64,000 nt of DNA from a virus (Duplodnaviria; Heunggongvirae; Uroviricota; Caudoviricetes): IMG/VR virus record IMGVR_UViG_2675903433_000022. One strand, written 5' to 3'. Position numbers and translations under genes: made by a program. Within the stretch, counting starts at the first letter, position 1. Every line of letters begins with the position of its first letter. Under the pieces are notes generated by a model that did no database searches, was not told where the DNA came from, and was given only the letters and a program-made list of their open reading frames with translations. This document shows positions 3,260-56,563 of the stretch, piece by piece.

Positions 3260-3310
3260 CTCGTTATTAACACATACAAGAAAACAATTTGTTAAAAGGT
3301 AAAGTTAATT

Positions 3311-17544: not shown

Positions 17545-17650
17545 CATATGGTGGGGGATATCCCCACCTTCTCTTTGATTTGTAAGCCTTGTTTAAACAC
17601 ATAAGATAACAACTTGTTTAAACGCACCAAAAAAGAAAAAGGAAAAACAC

Positions 17651-27031: not shown

Positions 27032-27077
27032 NNNNNNNNNNNNNNNNNNNNNNNNNNNNNNNNNNNNNNNNNNNNNN
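27032..27077. other. assembly gap (run of 46 N)
   Basis: Literal N run in the sequence. Confidence 0.99.
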
Positions 27078-27803: not shown

Positions 27804-27896
27804 CGGCTGTTAGTGCATATGCATTGACCATCTTTGCGTAAGCAATTTATGTAATTAGAAAACAACTTGTTTTGACAAATAATAAAAGGAAAACAC

Positions 27897-28508: not shown

Positions 28509-28619
28509 CGTTGACCGAAATAGAGAGTTTGCACCTTTACGTTTAGCTTGCTCCCCTTTTATGCCACATCACAATAAAGCCAATAAGAAAACAACTTGTT
28601 TAAGCATTAGGAAAAACAC

Positions 28620-29186
28620 ATGTGCAAGAAATGCAAAGCGATAGCTGATGAACAAAACGCCTTATTCGAAGAAATGGATGCTAATGAACTGGTCAAAATG
28701 TTAGCCATTCTTCGAGGAATAGAAGACGTTTCCATATTTGAGAGAGTGGTTACAGCACTTAATTTTGAGTCCACCTTTGAAGAGCCTACTCAGGTTGTAG
28801 CTTTAGCACATCATTTCGGTGTTCATTATCTTGCTGAAAAAGAGAGAGCTGATAAGTTGCAAGCGACTTTGGATATGGTGAGCGAGACTCAAGGATCTCA
28901 TGACGGTAACAAAAGTGAGACGATTATTGCCAGCAAAGATCGTGAAATTGCCGGGCTTAAATCCTCTCTAACGATGTTGATGTCTGCAATTAACCTTATG
29001 TCTTCTAAAGCAGGTTATAAAATGCCATCACTAAACAGCGACGATCCGATGGCCGTTCGCCAGCTTTTAGGTGCAATGGCCGACCAGCTCGACGACACAA
29101 AGAGTCGCCTTGAAGACATGATGCGGGAGCTCACGCATCGCCATGACTTGAATAAGCAGCCGCACAAAACGCAATACGCACTCTAA
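28620..29186 (+). CDS. hypothetical protein
   Basis: Track ORF 188 aa; conserved GGAAAAACACATG context. Confidence 0.5.
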   Translation: MCKKCKAIADEQNALFEEMDANELVKMLAILRGIEDVSIFERVVTALNFESTFEEPTQVVALAHHFGVHYLAEKERADKLQATLDMVSETQGSHDGNKSETIIASKDREIAGLKSSLTMLMSAINLMSSKAGYKMPSLNSDDPMAVRQLLGAMADQLDDTKSRLEDMMRELTHRHDLNKQPHKTQYAL

Positions 29187-29226: not shown

Positions 29227-29327
29227 CGCCTTAAATCTGCTGTAACGCCTATGAATGCAGCTTTTATGCCTTTTCAATTTTGTAATAATTACACCAATAA
29301 GAAAACAATTTGTTTAATGGTGTAATT

Positions 29328-31074: not shown

Positions 31075-31779
31075 ATGAACAACCTCCAGTTAGAGCATTT
31101 TAACGTCACAGGCCATTCTGATTTTCCTTTCAAGTTTACATTGAAAGGTTATGCAGAGGATGCGGTAGGCCAGATCATTATTGATAAAGGCATCGTTAAG
31201 TTTGAGGGGAATTTTGATGAATCCGCGAAAACATTCATAGACTTCGTTGCCAAACGTTGGAGCGAGCAATGGAAAGACCTGGAAAAGCGCGCTAGTGAGT
31301 TTGATCGGTTCATGGATGCAATGGATACAGCAAAAGAGGCTCTTGCTGCCGGGACTCCGTTAGATCTGGAGTCACTTTTCAACGGCGAAGTGGCCTCTGC
31401 GATGTTCGCCACCATGTTCGCGGGTGAGTTCGCCCGCAGCGGTGCCAAAAACTACCTTGAGCTGGATTACAACGTCCCGGAAATTGGCGATTTCGTCGTT
31501 ACCATCCAACGCAAAGAAGGTAAGACGCCAGGTGAACGCGTCGCAGAACTTGAGGCCGTTGTGGATCAGCGTAACGGAGAGTGTGACCGTTTGGTCAACG
31601 AGCTTCATGCACTTCGGGAAGAAAGAATATGCGCGGGTAGCAATACACGTAATGCAGCGGATATCTACTTCCAGTTAGTCGAGGAATGCCAAATTCCACC
31701 AGGTGGCTCTCTTGTCGATTACGTCAGACATTTAATGGCGGAAGTTAACTCCAGCCATAAAGATGGTGAGGTGCGCTGA
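31075..31779 (+). CDS. hypothetical protein
   Basis: Track ORF 234 aa; conserved initiation context. Confidence 0.55.
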   Translation: MNNLQLEHFNVTGHSDFPFKFTLKGYAEDAVGQIIIDKGIVKFEGNFDESAKTFIDFVAKRWSEQWKDLEKRASEFDRFMDAMDTAKEALAAGTPLDLESLFNGEVASAMFATMFAGEFARSGAKNYLELDYNVPEIGDFVVTIQRKEGKTPGERVAELEAVVDQRNGECDRLVNELHALREERICAGSNTRNAADIYFQLVEECQIPPGGSLVDYVRHLMAEVNSSHKDGEVR

Positions 31780-32189: not shown

Positions 32190-32210
32190 AAGGCCATAAC
32201 TTATGGCCTT
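32190..32210 (+). terminator. stem-loop terminator (AAGGCC..GGCCTT family)
   Basis: AAGGCCATAACTTATGGCCTT; same stem family at ~37432 and ~46573. Confidence 0.5.
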
Positions 32211-32297
32211 AAATAAATTGTTTTCTACCTTTTCTTATTTGTGAAAATAAACCAGCACTTGGTAGTGCTTATGTAACAGCAAAGAAGAGAAAAACAC

Positions 32298-33660: not shown

Positions 33661-34178
33661 AATTTTCCAAATTTTCTGAGTTGGTGAATCGTATTTTGTC
33701 CAACAACCACAGCCATCGTCGCGATATGGATGTAACGATCGTTGTTCATTCGCCTGGTCGCATCGGTTCAACACCATCAGTTGAGGTTCAGTCAATTCAG
33801 GCGGGTTTTGATTGGGATGCCGGGAAAGTGATGATTTTTCCAGCACAGCCACTGACCACGCTAACACCGGAGCAGGTTGCTGATATTACTGAAAGTGTGC
33901 ACAAAGGCCAGTCATGGCACGCGTATCAGGAATACAAGAAGCATAAAGAGCAGTTGGAAAAATTGTCGATGGAGTTGGAAGCCGCTAAACAGAGGGAAAA
34001 AGATCTGTTTATGGAAAATGTTCGACTTAAGTCAGGTATAGCCGGTCTGATACACCTCGGTATTCGATATGCGGATGTTGAGGTCATGAAAATTGCTGGA
34101 GATGCCCAGCTTTCTACTCCATGCACTGACAGCATCATAAACAGCATTGCAACAGGCATTCGCATTACAGCAGAGTGA
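33657..34178 (+). CDS. hypothetical protein
   Basis: Track ORF 33528..34178, ATG 33657 overlapping the upstream stop. Confidence 0.5.
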
Positions 34179-34381
34179 GTGATATGGATAAAAATACCCC
34201 TGCTTACTGGAGTTTATCACTTGATACCGAATGCCCAAAATGCGGTCACAATTTCGATCTGCTTTGTGATGCTGATTTTTGGGAGTTTTCTGGAGCGAAA
34301 CAGGCGTGTGAAGAAATAGAAGGTTACGAAACATGCTGTCCAGAATGCAACCATGAATTTAAAACAGATTTTGTGTATTGA
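34175..34381 (+). CDS. small zinc-ribbon protein (CxxC...CxxC)
   Basis: 68 aa with CPKCGH and CCPECNH pairs. Confidence 0.5.
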   Translation: MSDMDKNTPAYWSLSLDTECPKCGHNFDLLCDADFWEFSGAKQACEEIEGYETCCPECNHEFKTDFVY

Positions 34382-34391
34382 AGCATAGCAA

Positions 34392-34913
34392 ATGACCACC
34401 TTTACCAAAGAACAACTAATTGATCATATTAATGATCGCAAAGATGTCCGTCAGAGAATGTTGGATACCGCAACGATTTCTTCTGGATTCCGAGAATATC
34501 TTGAAAGAGAGCTTGCCACCGATCAGATTGCCCTAGCGTCGCTGGAAGCTGAACCTGTTCTGTATCAGTCCTGCACTCGCCCCACTTGGAATAGCGGTGT
34601 TCCGTGGACGGAATGGAAAGAACGTAGTCGTGAGGGCTACGAAAACGATTTGCGCTTTACAGACACGCCTGACCATGCCGGTTGGATAAACAAATGTCGA
34701 AAACTATATACCACTCCGCCAGCGTCACTGCTACCTGACGGACTGGTTAAAGCCGTGCGCTTCTATGAACAGGTTAAGCGTGAAAATCCGCCAGTCGAAA
34801 CCGGAGCATGGAAAGACGCGGTTGACTGGGTGCTTAAAGAGGCTTTCCAGGCTGTATCAGTGTTGGAAAGCAGTAGAGAACACGAAGTTATTAGCCAGCA
34901 GGAGAAGGCATGA
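34392..34913 (+). CDS. hypothetical protein (N-terminus paralogous to 35108 gene)
   Basis: Shares N-terminal MTTFTKEQLI with the gene at 35108. Confidence 0.5.
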   Translation: MTTFTKEQLIDHINDRKDVRQRMLDTATISSGFREYLERELATDQIALASLEAEPVLYQSCTRPTWNSGVPWTEWKERSREGYENDLRFTDTPDHAGWINKCRKLYTTPPASLLPDGLVKAVRFYEQVKRENPPVETGAWKDAVDWVLKEAFQAVSVLESSREHEVISQQEKA

Positions 34914-35098
34914 GACAACTTTACACCATTGTTATCGCATTTGTTTTTGGTTTTGGCGGCATTTGCGTCGGTGAGAGTGCTGGCTATAACCGTGGATTAA
35001 GTGAAGGAGTTGCTATCAGCAAGGGGGATAAGTGGGATTGTGCTTACTCATACGTGACTGGATTCCTTATGTGTGATCGAACCCCAAAATATAAGTAG
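34910..35098 (+). CDS. small membrane protein
   Basis: 62 aa, hydrophobic N-terminal segment. Confidence 0.4.
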   Translation: MRQLYTIVIAFVFGFGGICVGESAGYNRGLSEGVAISKGDKWDCAYSYVTGFLMCDRTPKYK

Positions 35099-35107
35099 AG
35101 GCTATCA

Positions 35108-35812
35108 ATGACCACCTTTACCAAAGAACAGTTAATCTCCCATGCACGCGAAAGCGTTAGTTATCTGGAAAACTTGAAAGGACGTGTTAGCAAAGAAGGT
35201 GCGGACTGCAAAGTTGTTATTGAGATGGTTGCACGAGATCTAAAACTGGCTCGAATTGCACTGACCTCACTTGAGACAAAACCAATAGGTGCATTCCACA
35301 TTGCAGAACAGCAAGTTGACGGTACAAGTGACTACATCAAGGATGGAGAGTGGCCTATTGATAATGGGACAATTGAAGTATACGCCGCCCCTCCAGTGCC
35401 AGTAGTACCGGAAGAAAAACCAATGCCTAATCCTCTTAGCATGTACGCGGTTGATGCTGTTGCCGCTATTGCAGAGGTGAGAGGCTGGAACGCCTGTCGT
35501 GCCGCTATGCTTCAGAGTCAAGATAATTGCATTAAGGATGGTTGGATAAGCTGTAGTGAGCGAATGCCTGTAATCGGCGAGCTAAATTGGAGAACTGGTT
35601 TTCCTTTGCTGATTACGTGTGAGATCGGCGTTATACCAGCTTATTACGGCTTTGTGAGCGTTAATGGGGATAAGCATTATGGTTTTATGGAAAGTTTTAA
35701 ATACGGAGACGATCGCGGCGGCCATCCTAAAACTAATGAATATGGTCTGATTAGCAATGTCACACACTGGATGCCGCTACCAGAACCTCCGCAGGAGTCG
35801 AAGAGTGAATAA
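35108..35812 (+). CDS. hypothetical protein (paralog of 34392 gene at N-terminus)
   Basis: N-terminal MTTFTKEQLI; C-terminal Trp/Pro-rich tail THWMPLPEPP. Confidence 0.5.
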   Translation: MTTFTKEQLISHARESVSYLENLKGRVSKEGADCKVVIEMVARDLKLARIALTSLETKPIGAFHIAEQQVDGTSDYIKDGEWPIDNGTIEVYAAPPVPVVPEEKPMPNPLSMYAVDAVAAIAEVRGWNACRAAMLQSQDNCIKDGWISCSERMPVIGELNWRTGFPLLITCEIGVIPAYYGFVSVNGDKHYGFMESFKYGDDRGGHPKTNEYGLISNVTHWMPLPEPPQESKSE

Positions 35813-36026
35813 AGCAGAGTTATTTCAGAAAATATCGGCTCTCGCGACTGAATGCCACGCTATAGCATCTGAGCTTGATGTTGGCGATGAACGAACCGAG
35901 ATGTTCGAAATATACAGTGTGCTGCGCAATCTCTGTCGGCGTGGCTACGCCACTCAAGTAGGGCGAATGACTAACCCACTACTCTCATCCTGTGATGAGG
36001 ATGACTCGGATGAGGATGACGAATGA
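35757..36026 (+). CDS. hypothetical protein with acidic tail (start uncertain)
   Basis: Track ORF 89 aa overlapping the upstream gene; possible internal GTG start near 35803. Confidence 0.4.
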   Translation: MSHTGCRYQNLRRSRRVNKAELFQKISALATECHAIASELDVGDERTEMFEIYSVLRNLCRRGYATQVGRMTNPLLSSCDEDDSDEDDE

Positions 36027-36877
36027 TGCATAAATCAGTAGCCGGTGAGTTTCAGAAGGAAGTCGATAATACTACCGTTCTATTGGACGATATTTTAAGC
36101 ATTCTCGCGCTGCTTGAGGCTGGCGATTGGTCAGAACATTGCACTAAAACAGAGCTAGGCGGTCGGCTTGAAAGAGAGATTACACGACTTATTGGTGATG
36201 CGCAGGAAGCTACAGTCACTAGTTATGAGTTAATCGCTGAAGCCTGGCGTTTGATGGATGGACAAGATCCTAAAACCAGCGATTGGCATAGCAAGGCTTC
36301 GAAGTATTTAAATTCCAATAGGGTAGAAAAAGTTGATGATGTGAAACCGAAGCCAGTAGATCACGGTTTCCGCGATAACTGCGAATGCTCTAGTTGCCAG
36401 ACCACGGCCCGTATTTGTTCCGAATTGACAGATAAGTCCAGCCTAATCTACGAAGTTAATGTAGGCGGTAATACATGGGTCGAATGCACAAGAGCTGCAT
36501 ACGTAAGAGCAAAAGACAAGGGTGAATTAACCAGAGTTGTTACCCATCACCCAAATAATGAGCTTAAAGATCACCAGATTCGAGAACTAGTGAACGAGTT
36601 GCGGGATATTGCGGTTACGTATCACGGAACGCAGCAATTGCGGGAGAAAATTGCCAGAGCAGTGAACAACTCGCTCAAAGGTGGACAATCCCAACCGAAA
36701 CGTATACGAATTACACATATAGGTGAAAACGGAACAGAAATCCCCCAATTTTCTGTTGGGGACATCTTTGATGTACATGGAGAAGAGTTTGGTGAGCCTC
36801 ACATCACTATGCCTAGTGGCCATGTTTACTGGCTAAGAGCTATGGAGAAATATGGTGATAAATGGGAAGTGTTATGA
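36023..36877 (+). CDS. hypothetical protein
   Basis: Track ORF 284 aa. Confidence 0.55.
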   Translation: MMHKSVAGEFQKEVDNTTVLLDDILSILALLEAGDWSEHCTKTELGGRLEREITRLIGDAQEATVTSYELIAEAWRLMDGQDPKTSDWHSKASKYLNSNRVEKVDDVKPKPVDHGFRDNCECSSCQTTARICSELTDKSSLIYEVNVGGNTWVECTRAAYVRAKDKGELTRVVTHHPNNELKDHQIRELVNELRDIAVTYHGTQQLREKIARAVNNSLKGGQSQPKRIRITHIGENGTEIPQFSVGDIFDVHGEEFGEPHITMPSGHVYWLRAMEKYGDKWEVL

Positions 36878-36890
36878 GGGATGCGAAGTT

Positions 36891-37415
36891 ATGACCAAAT
36901 TTGGAAAGCTGGAAGCTCATTTGCTGACTCGTAACTACCGCCATGATATACACCCATATAGACAGTGGATTGATGAAAGCGAAGGAGTTGTTACATTCCC
37001 TCTATACAGGTTTGATGGGATGTTGGCCGGGTATCAGACATACAGACCAGGCGCTCCTAAGCAGCATAGCAATCCGAAGATGGCCCGGTATTTCACACGA
37101 GCGCACGGCAGACAGCTACTATGGGGTACCTATCTTCCTTTAAAAGATGGACCGATATGGATAACTGAGTCGATTTTTAAAAGTGCAGCAGTGCACAACG
37201 CGGGCGGAAATTCGTGGGCGCTGTTAGGCTCGACTTTCTCAGCAGGATTACGTCGTCAACTGGCAATGCTGCCGTATGACTTTCGTGTAATAGGTGACAA
37301 TGATGCGGCTGGCGAATCACTTGTGAAGTCTTTCGGAAAAGGTTTTGTGGCACCGGATCTTGACGAGCTACAACCACATGAAGTGTCTAATTTGATTTTT
37401 AGCCATAGCCAATAA
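36891..37415 (+). CDS. hypothetical protein
   Basis: Track ORF 36852..37415, ATG 36891 after the upstream stop. Confidence 0.5.
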   Translation: MTKFGKLEAHLLTRNYRHDIHPYRQWIDESEGVVTFPLYRFDGMLAGYQTYRPGAPKQHSNPKMARYFTRAHGRQLLWGTYLPLKDGPIWITESIFKSAAVHNAGGNSWALLGSTFSAGLRRQLAMLPYDFRVIGDNDAAGESLVKSFGKGFVAPDLDELQPHEVSNLIFSHSQ

Positions 37416-37431
37416 GTATCACTTCTCCATT

Positions 37432-37452
37432 AAGGCCACAACTAGTGGCCTT
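37432..37452 (+). terminator. stem-loop terminator (AAGGCC..GGCCTT family)
   Basis: AAGGCCACAACTAGTGGCCTT followed by the TTGTTTTCTAC..GAGAAAAT cassette. Confidence 0.5.
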
Positions 37453-37538
37453 AAACAATTTGTTTTCTACGTTTTCTTATTTGAGAAAATCACGTTGTTG
37501 GCAGCTCATAGGCTTGTTGTTATACATAGCTGTATAGA

Positions 37539-37895
37539 TTATGAGCGTAAATTATTAGCGGATTTTAAGCCATATTCACCGTTATAGTAATTACTCGCGT
37601 TCCATTCATTGGGAAGCTCTTGTCTGTCCAATGTATAGTGGCGCACGATGTAACGACCTGCATCTTCTTCGAGGTACAGGCGGACATAGCCAATGTGAAT
37701 TACCGGTATGGGCGGCGTTCGTATTGCATAGATGTCGCGGAGATATACCGGTAGCTCGACAAATGCATCAGGTGCATCTGTGATGCTCGTTTTTTCACAG
37801 TATTCATATAACGCATCGTTGATATCGTTAAGGGATTCATGATCGTATATTTCCAGGTAATTACCCCGATCGCGATGGTACTCGATTTTAGCCAT
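37539..37895 (-). CDS. hypothetical protein
   Basis: Track ORF 118 aa, minus strand, directly downstream of 37896..38480. Confidence 0.5.
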   Translation of the reverse strand: MAKIEYHRDRGNYLEIYDHESLNDINDALYEYCEKTSITDAPDAFVELPVYLRDIYAIRTPPIPVIHIGYVRLYLEEDAGRYIVRHYTLDRQELPNEWNASNYYNGEYGLKSANNLRS

Positions 37896-38480
37896 TCAAA
37901 ATCCCCTATTATCGTTTTGCATTTCTCTAATCCGGTCCAGAACAACTTCATGTTGGGCTTGGATAGCGGCTTTTTCGTTTTCAAGCCGGGCAATAGACTT
38001 CTCTAATTCTTTGCTGTACCAGGCAAGTTGGGTAAGGTTCATCCGGTTGTGATCGAGAGTTGGCGACACCTCGACGTGATCCCCTTCTTCCTGCCTTAAT
38101 GAGAAGAGATTCATCTCATCCCTTGAGGAAAATTCAGCAACAATTTCTTGTTGATGATCCGGTCGCTGCGGCATCCTTGCCAGTATAAATGGCGGTTCTA
38201 TTGAAAACATGAATGACGGTTTAGACCGTGTTTTGACCCATCTAGCTTGCTGTCTTTCGGCAAGTTCACAGGCTTCATCATAGTTATCTACAAAACCAAG
38301 CACGGATGGACGGTCCCACGCGCCACCATTCAGACAATAAACAACAATTTTCCCGTCAGGTTCTGTAACTCCATAGGGATGGTCCCACCAGGCGTCCAGC
38401 TGGGCTTTGGAGCGTTTCTCGTTAGGAGTGCAGTCAAAATTTTTGGGCAATGCAGGATCGAGAGGAATGCGGGCAGGCAT
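37896..38480 (-). CDS. hypothetical protein
   Basis: Track ORF 194 aa; divergent from the UmuD-like gene across the LexA-box region. Confidence 0.5.
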   Translation of the reverse strand: MPARIPLDPALPKNFDCTPNEKRSKAQLDAWWDHPYGVTEPDGKIVVYCLNGGAWDRPSVLGFVDNYDEACELAERQQARWVKTRSKPSFMFSIEPPFILARMPQRPDHQQEIVAEFSSRDEMNLFSLRQEEGDHVEVSPTLDHNRMNLTQLAWYSKELEKSIARLENEKAAIQAQHEVVLDRIREMQNDNRGF

Positions 38481-38614
38481 GGCTAATTCCTTATTAATTG
38501 ATTAGTAACGAGGTTACGCTGATCCAGCGGTGATGAATAGTAGCAAAGCGCACAAAGTCATCAGAGGGGTTAAGACCCATAACGCGTTTGCACCAAAGGT
38601 GCATCTTTAATGTA

Positions 38615-38634
38615 TACTGTATGGATAAACAGTA
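38615..38634. promoter_or_regulatory. LexA (SOS) box
   Basis: TACTGTATGGATAAACAGTA fits CTGT-N8-ACAG; about 20 bp upstream of the UmuD-like start in a divergent promoter region. Confidence 0.7.
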
Positions 38635-38652
38635 TTTTGAGGTGAAAACGCT

Positions 38653-39042
38653 ATGGGCTTCCCTTCTCCTGCGGCGGATTATGCTGAGAGCCGTATTTCT
38701 CTTGATCAGCAGATAATTAGACATCCTTCAGCGACCTACTTCATGAGGGCAGCTGATAGCCATCATCGTGAGGGAATATTACAGGGTGCATTGCTGGTGG
38801 TCGATTCCTCACTTACCCCGGTTGATGGTTCTCTGCTTGTATGCGCTCTGGATGGGGAATATCGCGTAAAAAGATACCGGAAGTATCCACGTCAGCATCT
38901 GGAGGATTTAAGAACCGGTAAGAAGGAAGCATTGCCAAAGGATGACGATGGATGCACGGGCAGCAATGCCGTGTTTGGTGTGATCACTCACATTATCAAC
39001 GACGCAAGAAGTGGCGAGTTTGATGATTGTCCCGTGATGTAG
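38653..39042 (+). CDS. UmuD'-like (HumD-like) S24 peptidase-family protein
   Basis: Starts MGFPSPAADY, i.e. at the position equivalent to the post-cleavage N-terminus of UmuD (C|GFPSPAADY); HPSATYF and Ser/Lys dyad region conserved. Confidence 0.8.
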   Translation: MGFPSPAADYAESRISLDQQIIRHPSATYFMRAADSHHREGILQGALLVVDSSLTPVDGSLLVCALDGEYRVKRYRKYPRQHLEDLRTGKKEALPKDDDGCTGSNAVFGVITHIINDARSGEFDDCPVM

Positions 39043-39079: not shown

Positions 39080-40180
39080 TCACACTGCGCGGAATGCGAT
39101 TTCGCCAGGTATTACTTCACCTTGCCAATACATTTGGGCAGCAACGCGATCTGCGAGGTCACGATAAATAGCCGTAAATTCGCTATCTGGACGACTAATA
39201 ACGGTTGGTGTTCCGTTATCCAGATCTTCACGAAGAGAGATATGAAGTGGCATTTGGCCTAACAACTGCGTGTTGTATTTCTCGGCCAGTTTCTGTGCGC
39301 CACCGGTGCCAAAAATTGGCTCGTGATGACCGCAGTTACTGCAAATATGCATACTCATGTTCTCGACAATACCGAGCACCGGAACCTCGACTTTCTCGAA
39401 CATCACAATGCCTTTTTTCGCATCGATCAACGCGATGTCCTGCGGCGTAGTTACCACAACCGCACCAGTTACAGGAATGTTCTGCGCCAGCGTCAATTGA
39501 ATATCACCAGTGCCCGGCGGCATATCGAGAACGAGATAGTCCAGATCAGGCCATAGAGTTTCCTGCAACATCTGCATTAACGCCTTGCTCGCCATCGGAC
39601 CACGCCACACCATCGCATTGTCGTCAGTTACCAGATAACCAATTGAATTGGTTGCCAGTCCATGAGACATAATCGGTGCCATGTGAGTACCGTCCGGTGA
39701 GGTTGGACGTTGGTTTTCCGCGCCAAGCATGGTTGGAATTGATGGCCCGTAGATATCGGCATCCAAAATACCAACTTTCGCACCTTCAGCAGCCAACGCC
39801 AGTGCCAGGTTTACCGCCGTGGAGGATTTACCAACGCCGCCCTTGCCTGAGCTGACGGCGATAATGTTCTTAACGCCATTAATGCCTGGTTGGTTTTTGA
39901 CGCGCTTAAGCGTGGCAATGTTGTACGACAGCTTCCAGTCGATAGCCTTTGCGCCAGTGATACGGAGCAGATCACCACTACATTGCTCTTTCAGGTCTTC
40001 AAAAGGCTTATTCCACACGAAAGGCATGATTAGTTCGACATGCAGTGTGTCATCCATCAACGCAACATGGTGTAACGCTTTAAGCGTAGTCAGGTTGTGT
40101 TTCAGGGTTGGGTGCTGAAAATTAGCCAGCGTACCGGCTACCATTGCTCTCAGGGCATCCGGCGATTTGGACTCGCTCAT
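39080..40180 (-). CDS. apbC: Fe-S cluster carrier ATPase Mrp/ApbC
   Basis: 366 aa; deviant Walker A SGKGGVGKS; reads as near full-length enterobacterial Mrp by recall. Confidence 0.9.
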   Translation of the reverse strand: MSESKSPDALRAMVAGTLANFQHPTLKHNLTTLKALHHVALMDDTLHVELIMPFVWNKPFEDLKEQCSGDLLRITGAKAIDWKLSYNIATLKRVKNQPGINGVKNIIAVSSGKGGVGKSSTAVNLALALAAEGAKVGILDADIYGPSIPTMLGAENQRPTSPDGTHMAPIMSHGLATNSIGYLVTDDNAMVWRGPMASKALMQMLQETLWPDLDYLVLDMPPGTGDIQLTLAQNIPVTGAVVVTTPQDIALIDAKKGIVMFEKVEVPVLGIVENMSMHICSNCGHHEPIFGTGGAQKLAEKYNTQLLGQMPLHISLREDLDNGTPTVISRPDSEFTAIYRDLADRVAAQMYWQGEVIPGEIAFRAV

Positions 40181-40337
40181 CCCGTCTCCTTTATTTTAAT
40201 TTGCGCAATTGTCGCCTTGTAGTGTACTCCAGCTACGGCATTTAATCATTTATGAGAAATGCTGTTATCACATGGCAGACATAAGGCCATTTTGTTACTA
40301 TCAAGCCCCTTTTCACTACAAAGAAGTAATGCCTACT

Positions 40338-42371
40338 ATGACCCAAGTCGCGAAGAAAATTCTGGTGACGTGCGCGCTGCCGTACGCTAACGGCTCAATC
40401 CACCTCGGCCATATGCTGGAGCACATCCAGGCTGATGTCTGGGTTCGTTACCAGCGAATGCGCGGCCACGAGGTTAATTTCATCTGTGCCGACGATGCCC
40501 ACGGTACGCCGATCATGCTGAAAGCACAGCAGCTTGGTATCACACCGGAGCAGATGATTGGCGAAATGAGTCAGGAACACCAGACTGATTTCGCAGGCTT
40601 TAACATCAGCTATGACAACTATCACTCGACGCACAGCGAAGAGAACCGTCAGTTGTCTGAGCTTATCTATACTCGCCTGAAAGAGAACGGTTTTATTAAA
40701 AATCGTACCATCTCTCAGCTGTACGACCCGGAAAAAGGCATGTTCCTGCCGGACCGTTTTGTAAAAGGCACCTGCCCTAAATGTAAAGCGCCAGATCAAT
40801 ACGGCGATAACTGTGAAGTCTGCGGCGCGACTTACAGCCCGACTGAACTGATCGAGCCGAAATCGGTAGTTTCTGGTGCTACGCCGGTAATGCGTGATTC
40901 CGAACACTTCTTCTTTGATCTGCCTTCTTTCAGCGAAATGTTGCAGGCATGGACCCGCAGCGGTGCGTTGCAGGAGCAGGTGGCAAACAAAATGCAGGAG
41001 TGGTTTGAATCTGGCCTGCAACAGTGGGATATCTCCCGTGACGCACCTTACTTCGGTTTTGAAATTCCGAACGCGCCGGGCAAATATTTCTACGTCTGGC
41101 TGGACGCGCCGATTGGCTACATGGGTTCCTTCAAGAATCTGTGCGACAAGCGCGGTGATACCACCAGCTTCGATGAATACTGGAAGAAAGACTCCACCGC
41201 CGAGCTGTACCACTTCATCGGTAAAGATATTGTTTACTTCCACAGCCTGTTCTGGCCTGCCATGCTGGAAGGCAGCAACTTCCGCAAGCCGACCAACCTG
41301 TTTGTTCATGGCTATGTGACGGTGAACGGCGCAAAGATGTCCAAGTCTCGCGGCACCTTTATTAAAGCCAGCACCTGGCTGAATCATTTTGACGCTGACA
41401 GCCTGCGTTACTACTACACTGCGAAACTCTCTTCGCGCATTGATGATATCGATCTCAACCTGGAGGATTTCGTTCAGCGCGTGAATGCCGATATCGTGAA
41501 CAAAGTGGTTAACCTGGCCTCCCGTAATGCAGGCTTTATCAACAAGCGTTTTGACGGCGTGCTGGCAAGCGAACTGGCTGACCCGCAACTGTACAAAACC
41601 TTTACTGATGCCGCTGAAGTGATTGGTGAAGCATGGGAAAGCCGCGAATTTGGTAAAGCGATTCGTGAAATCATGGCGCTGGCTGATCTGGCTAACCGCT
41701 ATGTCGATGAACAGGCTCCGTGGGTGGTGGCGAAGCAGGAAGGACGCGATGCCGATCTGCAGGCGATTTGCTCTATGGGCATTAACCTGTTCCGCGTGCT
41801 GATGACGTACCTGAAACCGGTACTGCCGAAACTGACTGAACGTGCAGAAGCATTCCTGAATACAGAACTGACCTGGGATGGTATCCAGCAACCGCTGCTG
41901 GGCCATAAAGTGAATCCGTTCAAGGCACTGTATAACCGTATCGATATGAAACAGGTGGAAGCACTGGTGGAAGCATCCAAAGAAGAAGTGAAAGCCACAG
42001 CTGCACCGGTAACTGGCCCACTGGCTGACGACCCGATTCAGGAAACCATCACCTTTGACGACTTCGCCAAAGTTGACCTGCGTGTGGCGCTGATTGAAAA
42101 CGCGGAGTTTGTCGAAGGTTCTGACAAACTGCTTCGCCTGACGCTGGATCTCGGTGGTGAAAAGCGTAATGTCTTCTCAGGCATCCGTTCCGCTTATCCA
42201 GATCCACAGGCACTGATTGGTCGTCACACCATTATGGTGGCTAACCTGGCTCCGCGTAAAATGCGCTTCGGTATCTCTGAAGGCATGGTGATGGCTGCTG
42301 GCCCCGGCGGGAAAGATATCTTCCTGTTAAGCCCGGATGCTGGTGCTAAACCTGGCCACCAGGTTAAGTAA
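40338..42371 (+). CDS. metG: methionyl-tRNA synthetase
   Basis: Track ORF 40209..42371, true start ATG 40338 (MTQVAKKIL); HIGH-type motif [14 protein letters not shown], zinc knuckles CPKC/CEVC and C-terminal tRNA-binding domain. Confidence 0.95.
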
Positions 42372-42393
42372 TTAAACAACCTCTCTTCGCAAT

Positions 42394-42418
42394 GCCCGGC
42401 AACACGCCGGGCATTTTT
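42394..42418 (+). terminator. rho-independent terminator after metG
   Basis: GCCCGGC-aacac-GCCGGGC then ATTTTT. Confidence 0.6.
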
Positions 42419-42533
42419 CATATAGACACAATCCCTTCTGATTTACACAGTACCTAAAACAATTTGTTTTCTGCCTTTTGTTGATGGAGATAATAAACCA
42501 CATAAGAAAACAACTTGTTTTGGAGTGGTTGAA

Positions 42534-43189: not shown

Positions 43190-43930
43190 ACAACTGAATA
43201 ACAGATCAACGAAACGTCAACGCTTTCTCCCGATTTGGTCTAAAAAATTGACGTTTTCACACATCACTTCTTATACCCGTAATTCTACGCAGCAGATAGC
43301 GCCACAGCGTTCAATTTTCACCACAGACGACTCAACACACTACCAACAAAAACACACGCTCAAAATCGCTCCCGTTGCGTTACACAACCATATAAACAAC
43401 TTATTTTCAGGTATAACAAAACAACTAAATAACACATACGCCATTACCAAAAACAACCAACCTCTTTATGGCAGGCTACCGAAAAGACCCACCTCTTCTT
43501 CCCAGGCTACCGGACAGCCAACCTAACTTTCACAGGCAATCCGAAAACATTCATACGCGCGATACCCACGACACGCCATTACCCAAACATCGAAGAAACA
43601 CCAGAATCACTGAAACCCCAACGAAGTCTGTAACCGCAAGGCTTCTCTCAATCCCAAAAGACACGAAACATAACAATCACGGGAAACGCCATTACCCAAT
43701 ACACGAATAACTACAAAAGCCCTTCACACACTCCAGACAAACAACTCAAACACAATAACGAAAGGAATAGCCCACCTGCCATTACTCCATATACGGAGAA
43801 GAACAATAACCATAACGACGAGAACACCCCATAGAAGAACCACCGCAAAACGAACGAAACCACATACACCGACAGAGAAAACAACACACCCAATCCACCA
43901 ACAGAAATAGTCGCCCTATAGAACGTTCTG
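43190..43930. repeat. strand-asymmetric A/C-rich, G-poor noncoding tract with internal repeated modules
   Basis: About 740 bp with almost no G runs on the plus strand; recurring ACGCCATTACC(C)AA and CAGGCTACCG..CCACCT units; track ORFs here are low-complexity artefacts. Confidence 0.5.
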
Positions 43931-44265: not shown

Positions 44266-44612
44266 GCGAGAGAGAGTTGCGGCTACCCACCTGTAATGTG
44301 CGGTAAGAAGAGAGGCGCTCACGTGCAGGCGAACTTACTTACCGCTGGATTCCCTCTGAATGCCCAGCTACAGCGTAATTGTGCCAGACAGTCAGCGGGT
44401 CACAATCGATTTCAGTAGGTTTTCGGGGAGGGGATTATTCTGCCCACCAGCCATCTTCGGCCATTAAATCAGAATAATGTAAAAAGTGTACTCGGTACTG
44501 AACCTGAAAACTCACTGCCAAAACCACATTCACCGGAATAAAATCCTTTTTAGCCTTTGCGTTATTGCGATAATAACACCATCAAGAAAACATGTTGTTT
44601 AAGGATTGCTTT

Positions 44613-44942: not shown

Positions 44943-45096
44943 ACCCAACCAAAGCCAGCAATGCTGGCTTAACTTCATCTGTAGCCGCAGGGAAGAACCT
45001 GCATATCGCTCATGCGCCTGATCAATATGCTTTGTAGCCGTTTTCTTACTGGTATTATTTACGCCATTGAGAAAACAAGTTGTTTACGGAGTTGTG

Positions 45097-45930: not shown

Positions 45931-45942
45931 TCTTCTTTGAAT

Positions 45943-45968
45943 GGCGCGTAAACCGCGCCATTTTTTAT
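45943..45968 (+). terminator. rho-independent terminator (GGCGCG-taaac-CGCGCC + T run)
   Basis: GC stem followed by ATTTTTTAT, then the TTGTTTTCTACC..GTGAAAAT cassette. Confidence 0.6.
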
Positions 45969-46046
45969 GCCCGATAACAATTTGTTTTCTACCTTATCTG
46001 ATTTGTGAAAATGATTTCACTGAAGCAACTTAATAAGGAAACCATC

Positions 46047-46421
46047 ATGGGACTTGATATCTATATCGAGACACAGCCTAAAAACGATCTGAATAACGAG
46101 GCATCCAGAAAGCAGGTTGCTTACTTCCGTAAGTTCAATGCGCTCGTTGGGTGGATGGAGCGCAACGTAGGTGAAGTCGAAAATTGTGAGCTTTTAGAAT
46201 TAACGATGAATGACATTTGTTTTCTGAAGGCTCATTTGATGCACATAAACGAAAGTAATTGCGAAGAGTACTTGCCTACCCGGGAAGGCTTTTTCTTCGG
46301 CAGTCAGGAGTACGATGAAGGTTACTGGCATGACGTGGACAAGCTGAAAAAACTTGTGGAAGACCTGATCAGGAACCACGACTTTCACAATAACAGACTG
46401 ACGTTCTGCGCCTGGTGGTAA
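46047..46421 (+). CDS. hypothetical protein
   Basis: Track ORF 46005..46421, ATG 46047 after AAGGAAA. Confidence 0.5.
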   Translation: MGLDIYIETQPKNDLNNEASRKQVAYFRKFNALVGWMERNVGEVENCELLELTMNDICFLKAHLMHINESNCEEYLPTREGFFFGSQEYDEGYWHDVDKLKKLVEDLIRNHDFHNNRLTFCAWW

Positions 46422-46771
46422 ATATGGGCGATTTCAAGAAACGCCTGAAGGAAAGAGCCGAGATGGTCAGAAAGCAAAACGCCTCTTCTGTCATCAGATA
46501 TGCAAGGCAGTTTAGTCGCAACAACAAATCAGTTGAGGAAAAGATCCTTAGCGTAATCGGGCGATAATTATTAAGGCCATCAGCATTGGTGGCCTTAAAT
46601 GACCATCCTGTTTCCCGCAGGCTAAAAACACCAACCTCTTACCTCCAGGCAACCGACAAACCCACCTGTTCCCGTCCGGCTACCGCAACTTTCCACTTTG
46701 ACGCCTTATTCGTACAACGATAATTAACACCAACAAGAAAACAATTTGTTATTTACGATAAGGAATTAATC

Positions 46772-47254
46772 ATGAATTTTATCGCTACTGTAAACGCACC
46801 CGCACATGGCAATATCGTTGTAACGTTCTCTGACATTGAAAAACGAGTACTTGGTGCCTGGCGTCACAATGAGACGGTAGAACTGTCAGAACAAGAAAAA
46901 TGCATTATTTCACGCGACATCATTGGCAATCGTCGTTACTCGCGGGTATTTGAGAAAGCGTATGTGGTAAATTCTGGATTCGGAACGTTCGTCTTTCCGG
47001 TGCGCTCCGGGCGATTCTGCCAGTCCAAGCTGATTGAGTTCGCTACGCAGATTTCTGTCTGGATTAAAACTCAATCGTCGTTCAAATTTTCCGACGATGA
47101 AGCAGTATCGCAGGGGATGCGGATCGCCAACAATGCGATTAAATGCAAAAACATTACGTATACCGCTGGCGTTGATACATGGAAACTGTTTTGCGCTAAC
47201 TTTATGCTGAATGTATACGCAAGCAACCGCATCCACATCCTTGATGGCGTGTAA
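46772..47254 (+). CDS. hypothetical protein
   Basis: Track ORF 160 aa after an AAACAAtTTGTT palindrome. Confidence 0.5.
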   Translation: MNFIATVNAPAHGNIVVTFSDIEKRVLGAWRHNETVELSEQEKCIISRDIIGNRRYSRVFEKAYVVNSGFGTFVFPVRSGRFCQSKLIEFATQISVWIKTQSSFKFSDDEAVSQGMRIANNAIKCKNITYTAGVDTWKLFCANFMLNVYASNRIHILDGV

Positions 47255-49618: not shown

Positions 49619-50143
49619 TCAAAAAGGCAAAATTCGCTCAACCCAATCGAACAAAACAACTATTTTTCTACCGTTCTCGACACGTAGTGTAACCTGACAA
49701 GCATCTGCGCCTGCTGACACTCCCTCAATTTCACGGCCATCCGCCATGTACACCCTTATAGATTTGTTTGCTTTGTAGGCTTGGTTGCAAATTGCAAAAA
49801 AATCGCGGCGTGATGGCCGATTATCGACATAATCAGGGTGAACTGTTAGTCGACCTTTGAAATCGTGAGCGATACTGTCAACCACACCTGATTCAATTGT
49901 ACTAATGCGTTCAAGTGGGAGCCTTATACGATTTTCTTTATCAAAAGGGGCTGGGCAAAGGTCAACTTTGTTACGAGATGGCATGAGGCCATAAACGTAC
50001 ATGCAAAACGCCTGGCCATCTTCGAGAGTGACCCTTACAGGAATTTGTTCTCTGCGCCAGAACATCAGTAGTTTTTCAACGTTAGTGTAATCTCGCGGCC
50101 AGAGTTCAGCTTGGATACCGTAGGTAATATCTTTGGTTGTCAT
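49619..50143 (-). CDS. hypothetical protein
   Basis: Track ORF 49619..50221; start moved to the ATG at 50143 (MTTKDITYG), 4 bp after the upstream stop. Confidence 0.45.
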   Translation of the reverse strand: MTTKDITYGIQAELWPRDYTNVEKLLMFWRREQIPVRVTLEDGQAFCMYVYGLMPSRNKVDLCPAPFDKENRIRLPLERISTIESGVVDSIAHDFKGRLTVHPDYVDNRPSRRDFFAICNQAYKANKSIRVYMADGREIEGVSAGADACQVTLRVENGRKIVVLFDWVERILPF

Positions 50144-50638: not shown

Positions 50639-50917
50639 TTATTTTAATCTGCTTAATAGCGTTTCGAGATCTTCCTTTGTCATATTAGAGTTCTCATAGA
50701 TACGCATGATTTTCTCACGAGTCTTAGCGGAAGCCCCGACAGAAGATATAACCTTGTCAAAGTCGGCCATTGTCAATTGTTCCAGAATGGTATTTATGAC
50801 TTCAGCCTTAGACATTTTGATATTTTTTTCTTTTAGTTTCACTTGAAACTTTCCAAGTTTGTCATTGGCCTTATCAGACAATGCTACCTGACAATAAGTT
50901 GTTTTCTTTTCACTCAT
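50639..50917 (-). CDS. hypothetical protein
   Basis: Track ORF 92 aa immediately downstream of the helicase gene. Confidence 0.5.
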   Translation of the reverse strand: MSEKKTTYCQVALSDKANDKLGKFQVKLKEKNIKMSKAEVINTILEQLTMADFDKVISSVGASAKTREKIMRIYENSNMTKEDLETLLSRLK

Positions 50918-52479: not shown

Positions 52480-52543
52480 AAACCTCTTTCCTTAGTGCCT
52501 TTTGTATGTTATTTGGCTATTATAATAAGTAAGTGATTACTTA

Positions 52544-53242
52544 GTGGATTGTAGCAATAAAATGGATGTAAAAATCACGATTTTGCAGGTTGATGTTGCC
52601 AACCTTCGCCCGAATACCTGGAACACCAATTCGGTTGGTGCGCAGAATTTTGAAAAACTGAAAGGTTCTATCGAAAAATTGGGCTTTTTTAAGCCAATTT
52701 TGGCTCGTGAACTTGAAGATGGATTTTTTGAAATCCTCGGCGGCGAACATCGCTGGCGTGCTGCTATTGAGCAAGGAATTTCAACGGTTCCGGTGCTTTC
52801 TGTGGGCAAAATTAGCGATGTCGTAGCTAAACAGATGTCACTGGTGGACAACGAGCGATACGGTGAAGACGACCAAATCGCATTGCAACGCTTCATTGAA
52901 GAAATTCAGTCAGAACTTGACTATCAACTGTCTGAAATCGCCCCGTATGACGACGAAATCTCGATGGTTTTAGCAAAAGAGGCGGCAATCGACCTTGAAG
53001 CACTGGAGGCGTTGTCTCGTGGTAGTGATGAGCCTGTCGATACCGACAAACGAGAGAAAACCGAACGTGTGGGGGCGGAACATCAGACCATGCGCTTCAA
53101 AGTAACTTTCGATGCGTCAGATCGTGTTGCAGAAACCATAAAAAACATCATCAAAGAGCAGGCTATTAACACCGGTAATGAAATGGAGAACGCTGGTGAG
53201 GCTCTGGTGTGGCTGGTCGACTACTACAAGGAGCGTATGTAA
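52544..53242 (+). CDS. ParB-like nuclease domain protein 1 (start may be ATG 52562)
   Basis: ParB N-terminal domain signature ILGGEHRWRAA. Confidence 0.7.
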   Translation: MDCSNKMDVKITILQVDVANLRPNTWNTNSVGAQNFEKLKGSIEKLGFFKPILARELEDGFFEILGGEHRWRAAIEQGISTVPVLSVGKISDVVAKQMSLVDNERYGEDDQIALQRFIEEIQSELDYQLSEIAPYDDEISMVLAKEAAIDLEALEALSRGSDEPVDTDKREKTERVGAEHQTMRFKVTFDASDRVAETIKNIIKEQAINTGNEMENAGEALVWLVDYYKERM

Positions 53243-55468: not shown

Positions 55469-55735
55469 ATGACGTTAACCGACAAACAAAAGGACATCAT
55501 CAAAACGCTCAATCTCGGTTATGAGCGAGGTCATCTACTTGATCTGGACGAATTGCTTGAAGTTTTGCCGTACAAGACAACCAAGCAAAGTATCCAGTTC
55601 TCAATTCGCGCTCTGATAAAAAAGGGGCTGGTGGAGAAAGGGCATACGCGCCAACGCAGTGACAATCGCTATCACCGCCGGACTCTTGGGTTAACCACTT
55701 TAGGTCGAGCCAAAGCGAAGTTACTGGTGATGTAA
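55469..55735 (+). CDS. small winged-helix DNA-binding protein (tentative)
   Basis: 88 aa; helix-turn-helix-like segment and basic C-terminus. Confidence 0.4.
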   Translation: MTLTDKQKDIIKTLNLGYERGHLLDLDELLEVLPYKTTKQSIQFSIRALIKKGLVEKGHTRQRSDNRYHRRTLGLTTLGRAKAKLLVM

Positions 55736-55759: not shown

Positions 55760-55816
55760 CCTGCTTCTGTATATATAAATAATAAGTAACTTATTAAATA
55801 TATACGGAAGCAGGCT
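55760..55816. repeat. long inverted repeat, copy 2 of 2
   Basis: CCTGCTTCTGTATATAT ... ATATATACGGAAGCAGG, near-identical arms to the element at 25361-25419. Confidence 0.6.
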
Positions 55817-55930
55817 TCGTAAGACATGCCAGACCTAATTAAACACCCCAGAAAACAAGTTGGTTAGCAGATGCAGTAAACAAGTTGTTTTAGAGCGCAT
55901 GGACGCGCTCTGTGTGTTTTAGAGGGATCT

Positions 55931-56563
55931 ATGACGGTCGAAAAAGACGAGGTAAAAACTCGCCTGACACCAGCGGAGTGGGCCGAAGCTGAAGCCAAAT
56001 GGACGTCAGGCGAATATACACTCTCAAAGCTGGAGGAAGAGTACGGCATTCGTCGTGAAACACTCTCCAGACATTTCAAAAAGCGAGGATTAGAGAAAGG
56101 CGCGGACTCTGTTGGGAAGATGGTTCGTGAGTCTCTTAAATCTGACGCAGAGCTTCGCGCTAAAGCCCGTGCGGAAAAGATAGAAGAACGTCGTACACGT
56201 TATGACGGCTGGGCGTATGCGTTGGGGCAGATGGTGATGGTCGAAGTCACTACGGCCAAACGTGAGGGTAAGCCTTTAGGGGCGATTGAGGATTCTCTCA
56301 AGAGCTTACAGAGAGCCAGTAATACCCTTGCAAAATGCTTTGAAGTTTCGTCCAAAGCATTGGGCATGGATCATGCGGAAAATGACGAGGAAGAAATTCC
56401 GAACCTGGTATTTGGTGAGCTTACGCCTTCCCAGGTGGCGAAATTACGTCAGGAAGACGACGAGCCTGAAATCATCGATGACGAATTGCTTGAGACGTTG
56501 GAAGAAGAAGCTCTAAGCGAATTTGATGCGACAGATGATGGAATTGAAGGGGAGGACGAATAA
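55931..56563 (+). CDS. terminase small subunit (putative)
   Basis: 210 aa immediately upstream of and overlapping the large terminase start; acidic C-terminus; call by position. Confidence 0.5.
   Translation: MTVEKDEVKTRLTPAEWAEAEAKWTSGEYTLSKLEEEYGIRRETLSRHFKKRGLEKGADSVGKMVRESLKSDAELRAKARAEKIEERRTRYDGWAYALGQMVMVEVTTAKREGKPLGAIEDSLKSLQRASNTLAKCFEVSSKALGMDHAENDEEEIPNLVFGELTPSQVAKLRQEDDEPEIIDDELLETLEEEALSEFDATDDGIEGEDE

Follow-up and report, generated by a model that had tools for sequence, protein, structure and literature searches.

In the plasmid prophage of phage P1, the regulon of the C1 repressor comprises many operators that are scattered over the prophage and follow the asymmetric 17-mer ATTGCTCTAATAAATTT. 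For KorB, classes of OB sites are distinguished, and the omega protein of inc18 plasmids as well as the dispersed SopB centromeres of the phage-plasmid N15 are similar cases. Sigma-70 promoters of the extended −10 type carry the motif TGnTATAAT. On the IncP plasmid RK2, KorB, a member of the ParB family, is combined with 13-bp palindromic OB operators (PMC11790492), and in T4-type phages a stem-loop and an early promoter form the units described as PeSL cassettes (PMC2839356, PMC4122927). Four repeated intergenic cassettes on a stretch of 64,000 nucleotides from a virus of the Caudoviricetes (IMG/VR record IMGVR_UViG_2675903433_000022), which as a whole is called the window here, are a further example of these known kinds of element, namely operator-controlled phage promoters and composite terminator/promoter cassettes.

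The window is part of an E. coli SSU5/pHCM2-like phage-plasmid. Between 30 and 47 kb it is 96–97% identical, over 80–87% of the length, to phage-plasmids of about 108–110 kb from E. coli, E. albertii and Shigella, and it is related to Salmonella phage SSU5 and to E. coli phage Cyrano, which is 97% identical at the cassette region. The gene order is that of SSU5, with a recombinase, nrdAB, thyA, methylases, small accessory genes, a minus-strand block including a UvsW-like helicase, two ParB_N genes after this block, and the terminase and head genes. All four cassettes are located in the accessory stretch at 27–47 kb.

The reading to which we lean, with slightly better than even confidence, is that the cassettes are composite units of a stem-loop, an operator and an extended −10 element that belong to a regulon, probably repressed by a DNA-binding protein in the plasmid state. 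Judged by their sequence, the four stretches appear to be the upstream-operator subtype of a family-wide SSU5-type promoter/operator system, joined to stem-loops. The putative operator is built on the 13-base palindrome AAACAAnTTGTTT (AAACAA-n-TTGTTT), of which TTGTTTTCT is the stronger half, extended toward the promoter side. All promoter positions given here assume that the −10 hexamer occupies −12 to −7. The cassettes comprise the following parts:

32190–32210, plus strand: stem-loop of cassette 1, AAGGCCATAACTTATGGCCTT (−12.1 kcal/mol, z-score −3.7), terminator-like solely on the minus strand in the terminator scan
32211–32226, plus strand: putative operator of cassette 1, AAATAAATTGTTT followed by TCT, with one mismatch to the palindrome (palindrome 32211–32223, TTGTTTTCT 32218–32226), at about −44 to −29
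32240–32248, plus strand: predicted extended −10 element of cassette 1, TGT GAAAAT; the ATG of the next gene is at 32298
37430–37454, plus strand: stem-loop of cassette 2, TTAAGGCCAC..GTGGCCTTAA (−15.6 kcal/mol, z-score −5.9), also found in the terminator scan
37453–37468, plus strand: putative operator of cassette 2, AAACAATTTGTTT followed by TCT (palindrome 37453–37465), with a decaying copy in phage P7
37482–37490, plus strand: predicted extended −10 element of cassette 2, TGA GAAAAT, facing two convergent minus-strand open reading frames (ORFs) at 37539–38480
42391–42420, plus strand: canonical intrinsic terminator of cassette 3, a 10-bp stem followed by UUUUUCAU (hairpin 42391–42415; −19.1 kcal/mol, z-score −5.7), located 3′ of metG and ranked first in the scan
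42457–42472, plus strand: putative upstream operator of cassette 3, AAACAATTTGTTT followed by TCT (palindrome 42457–42469)
42486–42494, plus strand: predicted −10 region of cassette 3, GGA GATAAT, without TG
42505–42521, plus strand: putative downstream (leader) operator of cassette 3, AGAAAACAACTTGTTTT, its centre 51 bp from that of the upstream operator; the next ATG is at 42534
45939–45969, plus strand: canonical intrinsic terminator of cassette 4, a stem followed by UUUUUUAU (hairpin 45939–45963; −15.6 kcal/mol, z-score −3.8)
45975–45990, plus strand: putative operator of cassette 4, TAACAATTTGTTT followed by TCT (palindrome 45975–45987)
46004–46012, plus strand: predicted extended −10 element of cassette 4, TGT GAAAAT; the next ATG is at 46047

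The four look-alike copies reported in the initial annotation are thus all present at the positions given there. The common layout described for them, a hairpin followed by the motif and a −10-like element, is found in all four, except that in cassette 3 the hairpin is separated from the palindrome downstream of it by 41 nt. All four hairpins are G+C-rich and fold at −12 to −19 kcal/mol (z-scores −3.7 to −5.9). A U run directly 3′ of the stem is present in cassettes 3 and 4 only (UUUUUCAU and UUUUUUAU); behind hairpins 1 and 2 the sequence reads AAAUAAAUUG and AAACAAUUUG, respectively, and a U-rich run starts 7–9 nt past the stem. The proposal that promoters restart transcription after each terminator therefore applies to cassettes 3 and 4 only, as no plus-strand U tract is associated with the other two hairpins. 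In its more general form, that promoter-like units start plus-strand transcription after a stem-loop, the proposal agrees with the −10-like hexamer, the TGn in three of the four cassettes and the recurrence of the units in relatives.

Copies of about 41 nt, with palindrome starts at 32211, 37453, 42457 and 45975, reach 55–60 bits with a 41-nt weight matrix (maximum of 50 shuffles: 13), a score that is circular for these copies as the matrix was built from the same four. The sequence TTGTTTTCTNCNTT has four exact matches, on the plus strand only, and seven matches at one mismatch versus 0.61 expected. That the copies exceed chance is independently supported by orthologous and additional copies in other genomes.

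The motif turned out not to be confined to the four sites, since its 5′ part is the palindrome AAACAAnTTGTTT. In total, 8 exact copies of the palindrome are present in the window versus 0.02 expected, and 16 copies with at most one mismatch versus 0.3 in shuffles. Fifteen of the 16 lie outside ORFs that begin with ATG and encode at least 90 aa, that is, in 17% of the window (binomial P 5e-11), and the 16th is counted as located in an ORF merely through an ATG inside the palindrome that extends this ORF. The 9-nt half AGAAAACAA / TTGTTTTCT occurs 18 times versus 1.2 expected.

Two classes of sites could be distinguished. In the upstream class, formed by the four cassettes, TCT(A/G)CC comes after the dyad, then about ten T-rich bases, TGn and the −10 hexamer, and the dyad covers −44 to −32 with its centre at −38. 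In the leader class, consisting of ten other sites, a −10-like hexamer (GATAAT, AATAAT or TATTAT) is followed by about 10 nt resembling AACACCAAnA, by AGA and by the dyad, which covers +8 to +20 with its centre at +14. The leader sites begin 10 nt after the −10 hexamer, are located 10–30 nt 5′ of a ribosome-binding site and start codon, and show the orientation AGAAAACAAnTTGTTT, opposite to that of the cassettes, at about +5 to +20 of the ten other predicted promoters. In cassette 3 both the −38 and the +14 site are filled, with centres 51 bp apart (about five helical turns) and flanking the −10 element. The palindrome thus occurs in both orientations, and the extended half always faces the −10 element, in both classes, which fits recognition of double-stranded DNA. 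The dyad, the two orientations, the exact offsets to the −10 element on either side and the five-turn spacing favour a DNA site for a dimer; in RNA, the motif would give a 6-bp A-U stem closed by a single-base loop, which cannot form. The further copies of the palindrome are located as follows:

3279–3294, plus strand: putative leader-type operator AGAAAACAATTTGTTA, 5′ of the ORF 3311–4135
17604–17619, plus strand: putative leader-type operator AGATAACAACTTGTTT between nrdA and nrdB, likewise conserved in SSU5 and Cronobacter
27857–27872, plus strand: putative leader-type operator 5′ of a TerB/TciA-like gene (27897)
28586–28601, plus strand: putative leader-type operator 5′ of the ORF 28620–29186
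29300–29315, plus strand: putative leader-type operator 5′ of a DUF4942 gene, with the cassette-like promoter body TTTTATGCCTTTTCAATTTTGTAATAAT upstream and a footprint in four genomes
43394–43406, plus strand: palindrome copy AAACAACTTATTT within a G-poor stretch without a convincing ORF
44585–44600, plus strand: putative leader-type operator AGAAAACATGTTGTTT after TGCGATAAT
45070–45085, plus strand: putative leader-type operator AGAAAACAAGTTGTTT after TGGTATTAT
46736–46751, plus strand: putative leader-type operator 5′ of the ORF 46772–47254
55850–55890, plus strand: two palindromes 25 bp apart (55853 and 55878) in the leader of a terS-like gene, followed by a hairpin and a U run

The palindrome is conserved across genera. 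With at most one mismatch, 20 sites were found in SSU5, 18 in the Cronobacter plasmid NZ_CP141994 and 20 in the Klebsiella plasmid NZ_CP055187, with about 0.25 expected in each; the Klebsiella plasmid is divergent, its nrd region being about 70% identical. A scan for upstream-type cassettes that covered the window, SSU5, the Cronobacter and the Klebsiella plasmid yielded 13 cassettes, which come from the window, SSU5 and Klebsiella. In every one of these, the palindrome starts 32 nt before the −10 hexamer. TG is found one base 5′ of the hexamer in 12 of them (in three of the four from the window, cassette 3 having GG), and the hexamer is GA(A/T/C)AAT in 12 and TAATAT in one; position 2 is A and position 6 is T throughout. 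The dual sites with 51-bp spacing recur in the window, SSU5, E. albertii, Cyrano and Klebsiella. In alignments of the orthologous leaders of the DUF4942 gene, nrdB, dnaB and parA, AGAAAACAAnTTGTTT is invariant while the flanking DNA drifts. Sites are also located 5′ of core genes, namely parA, dnaB, a cobT-like gene, nrdB and the terS-like gene with its two sites 25 bp apart. The leader of parA, a gene outside the window, carries AGAAAACAAGTTGTTT in Cyrano, SSU5 and Cronobacter, and AGAAAACATCTTGTTT, with one mismatch in the palindrome, in Klebsiella. An exact-pattern scan of viral contigs returned SSU5-like contigs of about 110 kb mixed with single chance matches and was thus uninformative, and more than 1,300 plasmid records match the cassette region.

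Like the P1 C1 regulon, this system belongs to a plasmid prophage and repeats one short operator-like site at dispersed replication, accessory and late-control promoters. It differs in that its site has dyad symmetry and keeps to the fixed positions −38 and +14, and the P1 C1 operator ATTGCTCTAATAAATTT has no match in the window at up to three mismatches.

On the promoter side, TGnGA(A/T)AAT corresponds to the extended −10 type, position −11 being A and position −7 T in each cassette, and in cassettes 1, 3 and 4 a start codon follows on the plus strand 35–55 nt downstream. The cassettes share with extended −10 sigma-70 promoters the TG at −15/−14, the A at −11, the T at −7 and the absence of a usable −35 element; they differ in a hexamer beginning with G (GATAAT or GAAAAT), and activity is predicted here. 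The GAAAAT element of the initial annotation is found in cassettes 1, 2 and 4, and cassette 3 has GATAAT instead. The 17-bp spacer had to be corrected: the arrangement is TTGTTTTCT-N14-G(T/A)GA(A/T)AAT, and TTGTTT is separated from GAAAAT by 19 bp. For the same reason TTGTTT does not qualify as the −35-like element proposed in the annotation; the hexamers at 16–17 bp are TTTTCT and GTTTTC, and TTGTTT is one half of the conserved 13-bp palindrome. As this half is also present downstream of other promoters, it is better explained as the binding site of a regulator than as a sigma contact. Plain constitutive sigma-70 promoters with TTGTTT as −35 and GAAAAT as −10, having no dedicated regulator and resembling each other through duplication, are very unlikely. 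The −10-like hexamer, the TG motif and the downstream start codons would suit them, and the A/T-rich upstream half could serve as an UP element; however, the spacing is 19 bp, a consensus scan gives no match, the same 13–17-mer stands downstream of ten other −10 elements, where a −35 role is impossible, the motif is a dyad that remains invariant across genera while its flanks drift, and the downstream genes are at background in lysogens. Two other promoter assignments were rejected. The minus-strand scan match TTCACA-17-AACAAT in cassette 1 has hexamers that are not conserved in cassette 2, and a start from it would run into the hairpin with no gene behind. The cassettes are not inverted copies of leader-type promoters either, as the minus-strand −10 would then have to be ACAAAT, whose second base is C.

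Placement near the ribosome-binding site applies to the ten leader-type sites and not to the four cassette sites. It bears on a possible control at the RNA level, for which the window encodes one candidate:

49619–50143, minus strand: gene of an FljA-family protein (PF03614, E-value 2.5e-84), candidate regulator and the one recognized regulator in the window

Salmonella FljA reportedly blocks translation at the fliC leader, in work of Yamamoto and Kutsukake from 2006 and of Bonifield and Hughes from 2003. Repression of fliC by FljA via the 5′ untranslated region is reported in these papers, as cited in PMC2652032. By analogy, the protein of the window would act as a tandem Hfq-like RNA binder that recognizes AGAAAACAAnUUGUUU in leaders near the ribosome-binding site and blocks translation, an explanation that we consider unlikely. 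Its gene is conserved in the family and found in the Klebsiella clade too. The structural model (pLDDT 84) predicts two Hfq-like Sm domains, each a helix plus five strands, and no helix-turn-helix; Hfq is the best structure match (TM 0.7–0.85 over about 57 residues), and a profile search of the PDB sequences returned only one insignificant match, a kinesin (E 0.33). The ten leader-type sites lie 10–30 nt 5′ of start codons, the Salmonella fliC leader has AACATCAAGTTGTAAT 21 nt before the ATG and shares the 8-nt core CAAGTTGT (chance estimate <0.01), and expression of the homologue from Cyrano was seen in lysogens (18, increasing to about 2^8, and about 16-fold up outside overnight LB culture; PMC9928086). 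The FljA/fliC system and the window thus have in common an FljA-family gene, a motif in leaders near the ribosome-binding site and the core found in the fliC leader. They differ in that the four cassette sites are located upstream of the predicted transcription start, and a DNA site is indicated by the dyad and the orientation rules. These upstream sites, with their opposite orientation and fixed distance to the −10 element, are left unexplained by an RNA operator, and no stable RNA hairpin can arise from a dyad whose centre is 1 nt. Furthermore, identity among the FljA-like proteins drops to 37% in the Klebsiella clade, where the motif has not changed, and the E. coli fliC leader lacks the core CAAGTTGT. 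The FljA-like protein could account for the sites in leaders but leaves the four cassettes unexplained.

Expression was taken from the sole expression data found, the RNA-seq data of Cyrano lysogens in supplementary file 2 of PMC9928086 (file s008, ‘S1 Table’ in the text). The genes after cassettes 1, 3 and 4 read 6.3, 7.5 and 5.7 at a prophage median of 9.8, and genes with leader-type sites read 7–25 (PMC9928086). As the cassette genes are at background in lysogens, their promoters are presumably not simply constitutive. A post-induction phage protein might also bind at −38 as an activator of class II or Mor/C type and switch these promoters on, the same protein shutting others from +14 and so forming a temporal switch; we regard this as rather unlikely. 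The poor −35, the palindrome centre near −38, the silence of the genes in lysogens and the weaker GAAAAT hexamer of cassettes 1, 2 and 4 are in line with activation. A conserved winged-helix-like protein, off in lysogens, is moreover encoded beside the late-operon double site:

55469–55735, plus strand: gene of a conserved 88-aa protein, winged-helix-like by eye, candidate regulator, directly upstream of the double palindrome in the terS leader

Its match to LexA_DNA_bind is below threshold (E 0.07), it is 78–89% identical across clades, and it is not expressed in Cyrano lysogens (PMC9928086). It may be regarded as a second candidate binder. An extended −10 promoter, however, usually works without an activator; both the −38 and the +14 site are present on one promoter in cassette 3 and in many cassettes from Klebsiella, which is contradictory for a scheme of activation and repression, and parA, with a +14 site only, is expressed in lysogens.

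The cassettes are also located at mosaic junctions. Compared with the 96–98% identical E. albertii plasmid L001, homology ends at 32250, just past the −10 element of cassette 1, at 37470 within cassette 2 and at 45999 within cassette 4, corresponding to 39, 17 and 24 nt after the respective palindrome starts; the homology to SSU5 also breaks in cassette 4, at 45998. With ten internal breakpoints in 21 kb, about 0.15 were estimated to fall within 40 bp of the four cassettes by chance, and three were observed. Together with the two minus-strand genes that follow, cassette 2 shares about 91% identity with the humD region of P7/P1, in which its counterpart is in decay. The cassettes may thus be reused as recombination joints, by analogy with the PeSL of T4-type phages. 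Both are short repeated intergenic units of a stem-loop terminator or attenuator and a sigma-70-type promoter among small accessory ORFs, with copies at insertion/replacement junctions between close relatives. The present cassettes show no sequence relationship to the PeSL and stem from an unrelated phage lineage, and they are an analogue rather than a member. The PeSL promoters have a full −35/−10 consensus and an AT-rich upstream region, whereas here a palindrome at the −35 position is combined with an extended −10, and the PeSL host is a virulent myovirus, whereas this element is a temperate phage-plasmid. It is hardly probable that the cassettes are purely recombination modules, with the palindrome as a crossover or recombinase site without a role in transcription, even though three of the four lie on homology breakpoints, cassette 2 is common to P7 and the PeSL provide a precedent (PMC2839356, PMC4122927). 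The exact 32-nt offset to the −10 element and the +14 placement point to transcription, sites are present in the leaders of the non-mosaic core genes nrdB, dnaB, parA and terS, and repeats recombine without a dedicated site.

In the repression reading that we prefer, the stem-loop would end or attenuate the upstream transcript, cassettes 3 and 4 having a true intrinsic terminator at this place and cassettes 1 and 2 a hairpin that lacks the U tract. The 13-bp palindrome would be the operator, a double-stranded DNA site for a dimeric regulator that is either encoded by the element or conserved in the hosts, next to a sigma-70 promoter relying on an extended −10 instead of a −35. Occupancy at −38 would block the binding of RNA polymerase and occupancy at +14 promoter escape, and where both sites are filled, binding is possibly cooperative. 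The regulator would most likely repress these promoters while the element lives as a plasmid. Finally, the unit of about 50 bp, being repeated among small accessory genes, would offer a crossover point for the exchange of modules between related elements.

Several observations weigh against this reading. The literature on SSU5-like elements yielded no transcription start or binding data. None of the four cassettes was found on the plus strand by a sigma-70 consensus scan, the −35 being poor, and GAAAAT lacks the T at −12. Cassette 2 has no plus-strand gene behind it in the window, but two convergent minus-strand genes. The flanks of the dyad are asymmetric, since +7 is mostly A instead of the T required by symmetry; this could reflect an oriented element or constraints from overlapping promoter parts (a T-rich −35 region, an A-rich start region). 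The silence in lysogens fits repression and fits equally the need for an activator. The parA operon, with its leader site, reads 50–89 in Cyrano lysogens, 5–9 times the prophage median (PMC9928086), so that a +14 site alone does not silence completely and repression would not be absolute. The divergent promoter at 52480–52560 is without the palindrome. The DNA flanking the CI-like gene in Cronobacter and Klebsiella is without it too and has TAAGTAACCACA-like repeats instead, so that a CI-like repressor is unlikely as the binder.

Among the candidate binders, a protein encoded after parA currently leads, with low confidence:

Cyrano OV696614 29975–30334 (CYRAN_29) and SSU5 31231–31521, outside the window, after parA: gene of a ParG-like protein, candidate binder

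CYRAN_29 is annotated as ‘RelE/ParE putative toxin’ in Cyrano. By eye, it looks like a ParG-type centromere-binding protein with a ribbon-helix-helix fold. The arm and strand PVRPQGRPTRGK..IKSRTMS(L/I)EDE, which are predicted to read the DNA, are invariant in four lineages while the whole protein is 55% identical; it reads 89 in Cyrano lysogens, and its own operon carries a palindrome site. It is conceivable, though doubtful, that the palindrome is a dispersed centromere-like operator of this protein, serving plasmid segregation and at the same time holding down 16–20 phage promoters. The similarities to KorB and its OB sites are a 13-bp palindrome of 6-1-6 geometry in at least 12 copies at plasmid promoters, including positions just upstream of the −35, a site in the leader of the parA operon of the element itself, and a ParG-like partner of ParA with an invariant predicted DNA-reading segment. 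The differences are another sequence and a candidate that is predicted to be a small ribbon-helix-helix protein rather than a ParB CTPase; the two ParB_N proteins of the window are off in lysogens. If this reading is true, it would represent a central control in the style of KorB or omega in a phage, with lytic silencing tied to the plasmid state, and the controlled promoters would include those of replication, accessory and packaging genes. Alternatively, the FljA-like protein, a tandem-Hfq protein according to its structural model, might act on the leaders as a global regulator.

A third candidate, to be taken as a lead only, is a 92-aa protein (50639–50917, minus strand) that is highly expressed in lysogens and ribbon-helix-helix-like by eye; its AlphaFold model is poor (pLDDT 55), and nothing was found for it in a PDB sequence search or in Pfam. 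The two ParB_N proteins, also considered as binders, are not expressed in Cyrano lysogens. A further point against a CI-like binder is that SSU5_054/055 look like a HicAB-type pair with a GTTAAC-type repeat. The consensus sites of host factors (IHF, KdgR, CRP and others) presumably do not fit the palindrome.

The region between the UvsW-like helicase gene (minus strand) and the first ParB_N gene (plus strand), at 52480–52562, contains a different dyad, TAAGTAAgtgaTTACTTA, which may be the operator of a CI-type repressor. In the Klebsiella relative, the TAAGTAACCACA-like repeats adjoin a CI-like helix-turn-helix gene. In the leader of the terS-like gene (55800–55931), a −10-like TAATTA is present, and a hairpin AGAGCGC..GCGCTCT with a weak z-score is followed by GUGUGUUUU just 5′ of the start codon. 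The arrangement with two palindromes is kept in SSU5 and Cronobacter, and the layout of this leader would suit antitermination control of the late operon.

The G-poor, A/C-rich stretch at 43290–43900 spans about 600 bp without a convincing ORF and contains four GCCATTAC(C/T)C repeats, and three AAAACAAC half-sites (43185, 43394 and 43419) are located in it or just upstream. CYRAN_102, which lies upstream of this stretch and overlaps its start, reads about six times the prophage median in lysogens and is higher in other conditions. The stretch may represent a non-coding RNA or another kind of site array. A search of the whole window with Rfam gave no match at the gathering threshold. Further downstream (46415–46567, plus strand), a small basic ORF of 47–50 aa is homologous to CYRAN_109, which also reads about six times the prophage median in lysogens. 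CYRAN_108, immediately 5′ of it, is at background level there, which suggests an internal promoter or a small RNA.

Positions 33988–39033, especially 37280–39033, are about 91–92% identical to P1 and P7 and cover the humD region with the homologues of upf93.6 and upf94.2 (37539–38480, minus strand). This segment, which adjoins IS903 in P7, shows an exchange between two different phage-plasmid families. It is followed at 39080–42371 by a gene for a MinD/ApbC-like ATPase (minus strand) and a full-length methionyl-tRNA synthetase gene (metG); the MinD-like gene reads about nine times the prophage median in Cyrano lysogens. Positions 27032–27077 consist of 46 consecutive non-ACGT characters, that is, masked or unknown bases.

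SSU5/pHCM2-like phage-plasmids occur frequently in E. coli, Klebsiella, Salmonella, Enterobacter and Shigella, and some of them carry CTX-M-15. No description of promoters, operators or lysis-lysogeny control of these elements was found in the literature. One conserved 17-mer at fixed positions on about 16–20 promoters would provide a direct and testable map of a regulon, the first for a widespread and clinically relevant element. The sequence AGAAAACAATTTGTTTTCT could be used as bait, which offers a route to the regulator by DNA pull-down or gel shift, and the operator map predicts which cargo genes would be under phage control. Furthermore, the cassettes mark swap points of accessory modules, including those shared with P1/P7, which bears on the way in which these elements take up cargo.

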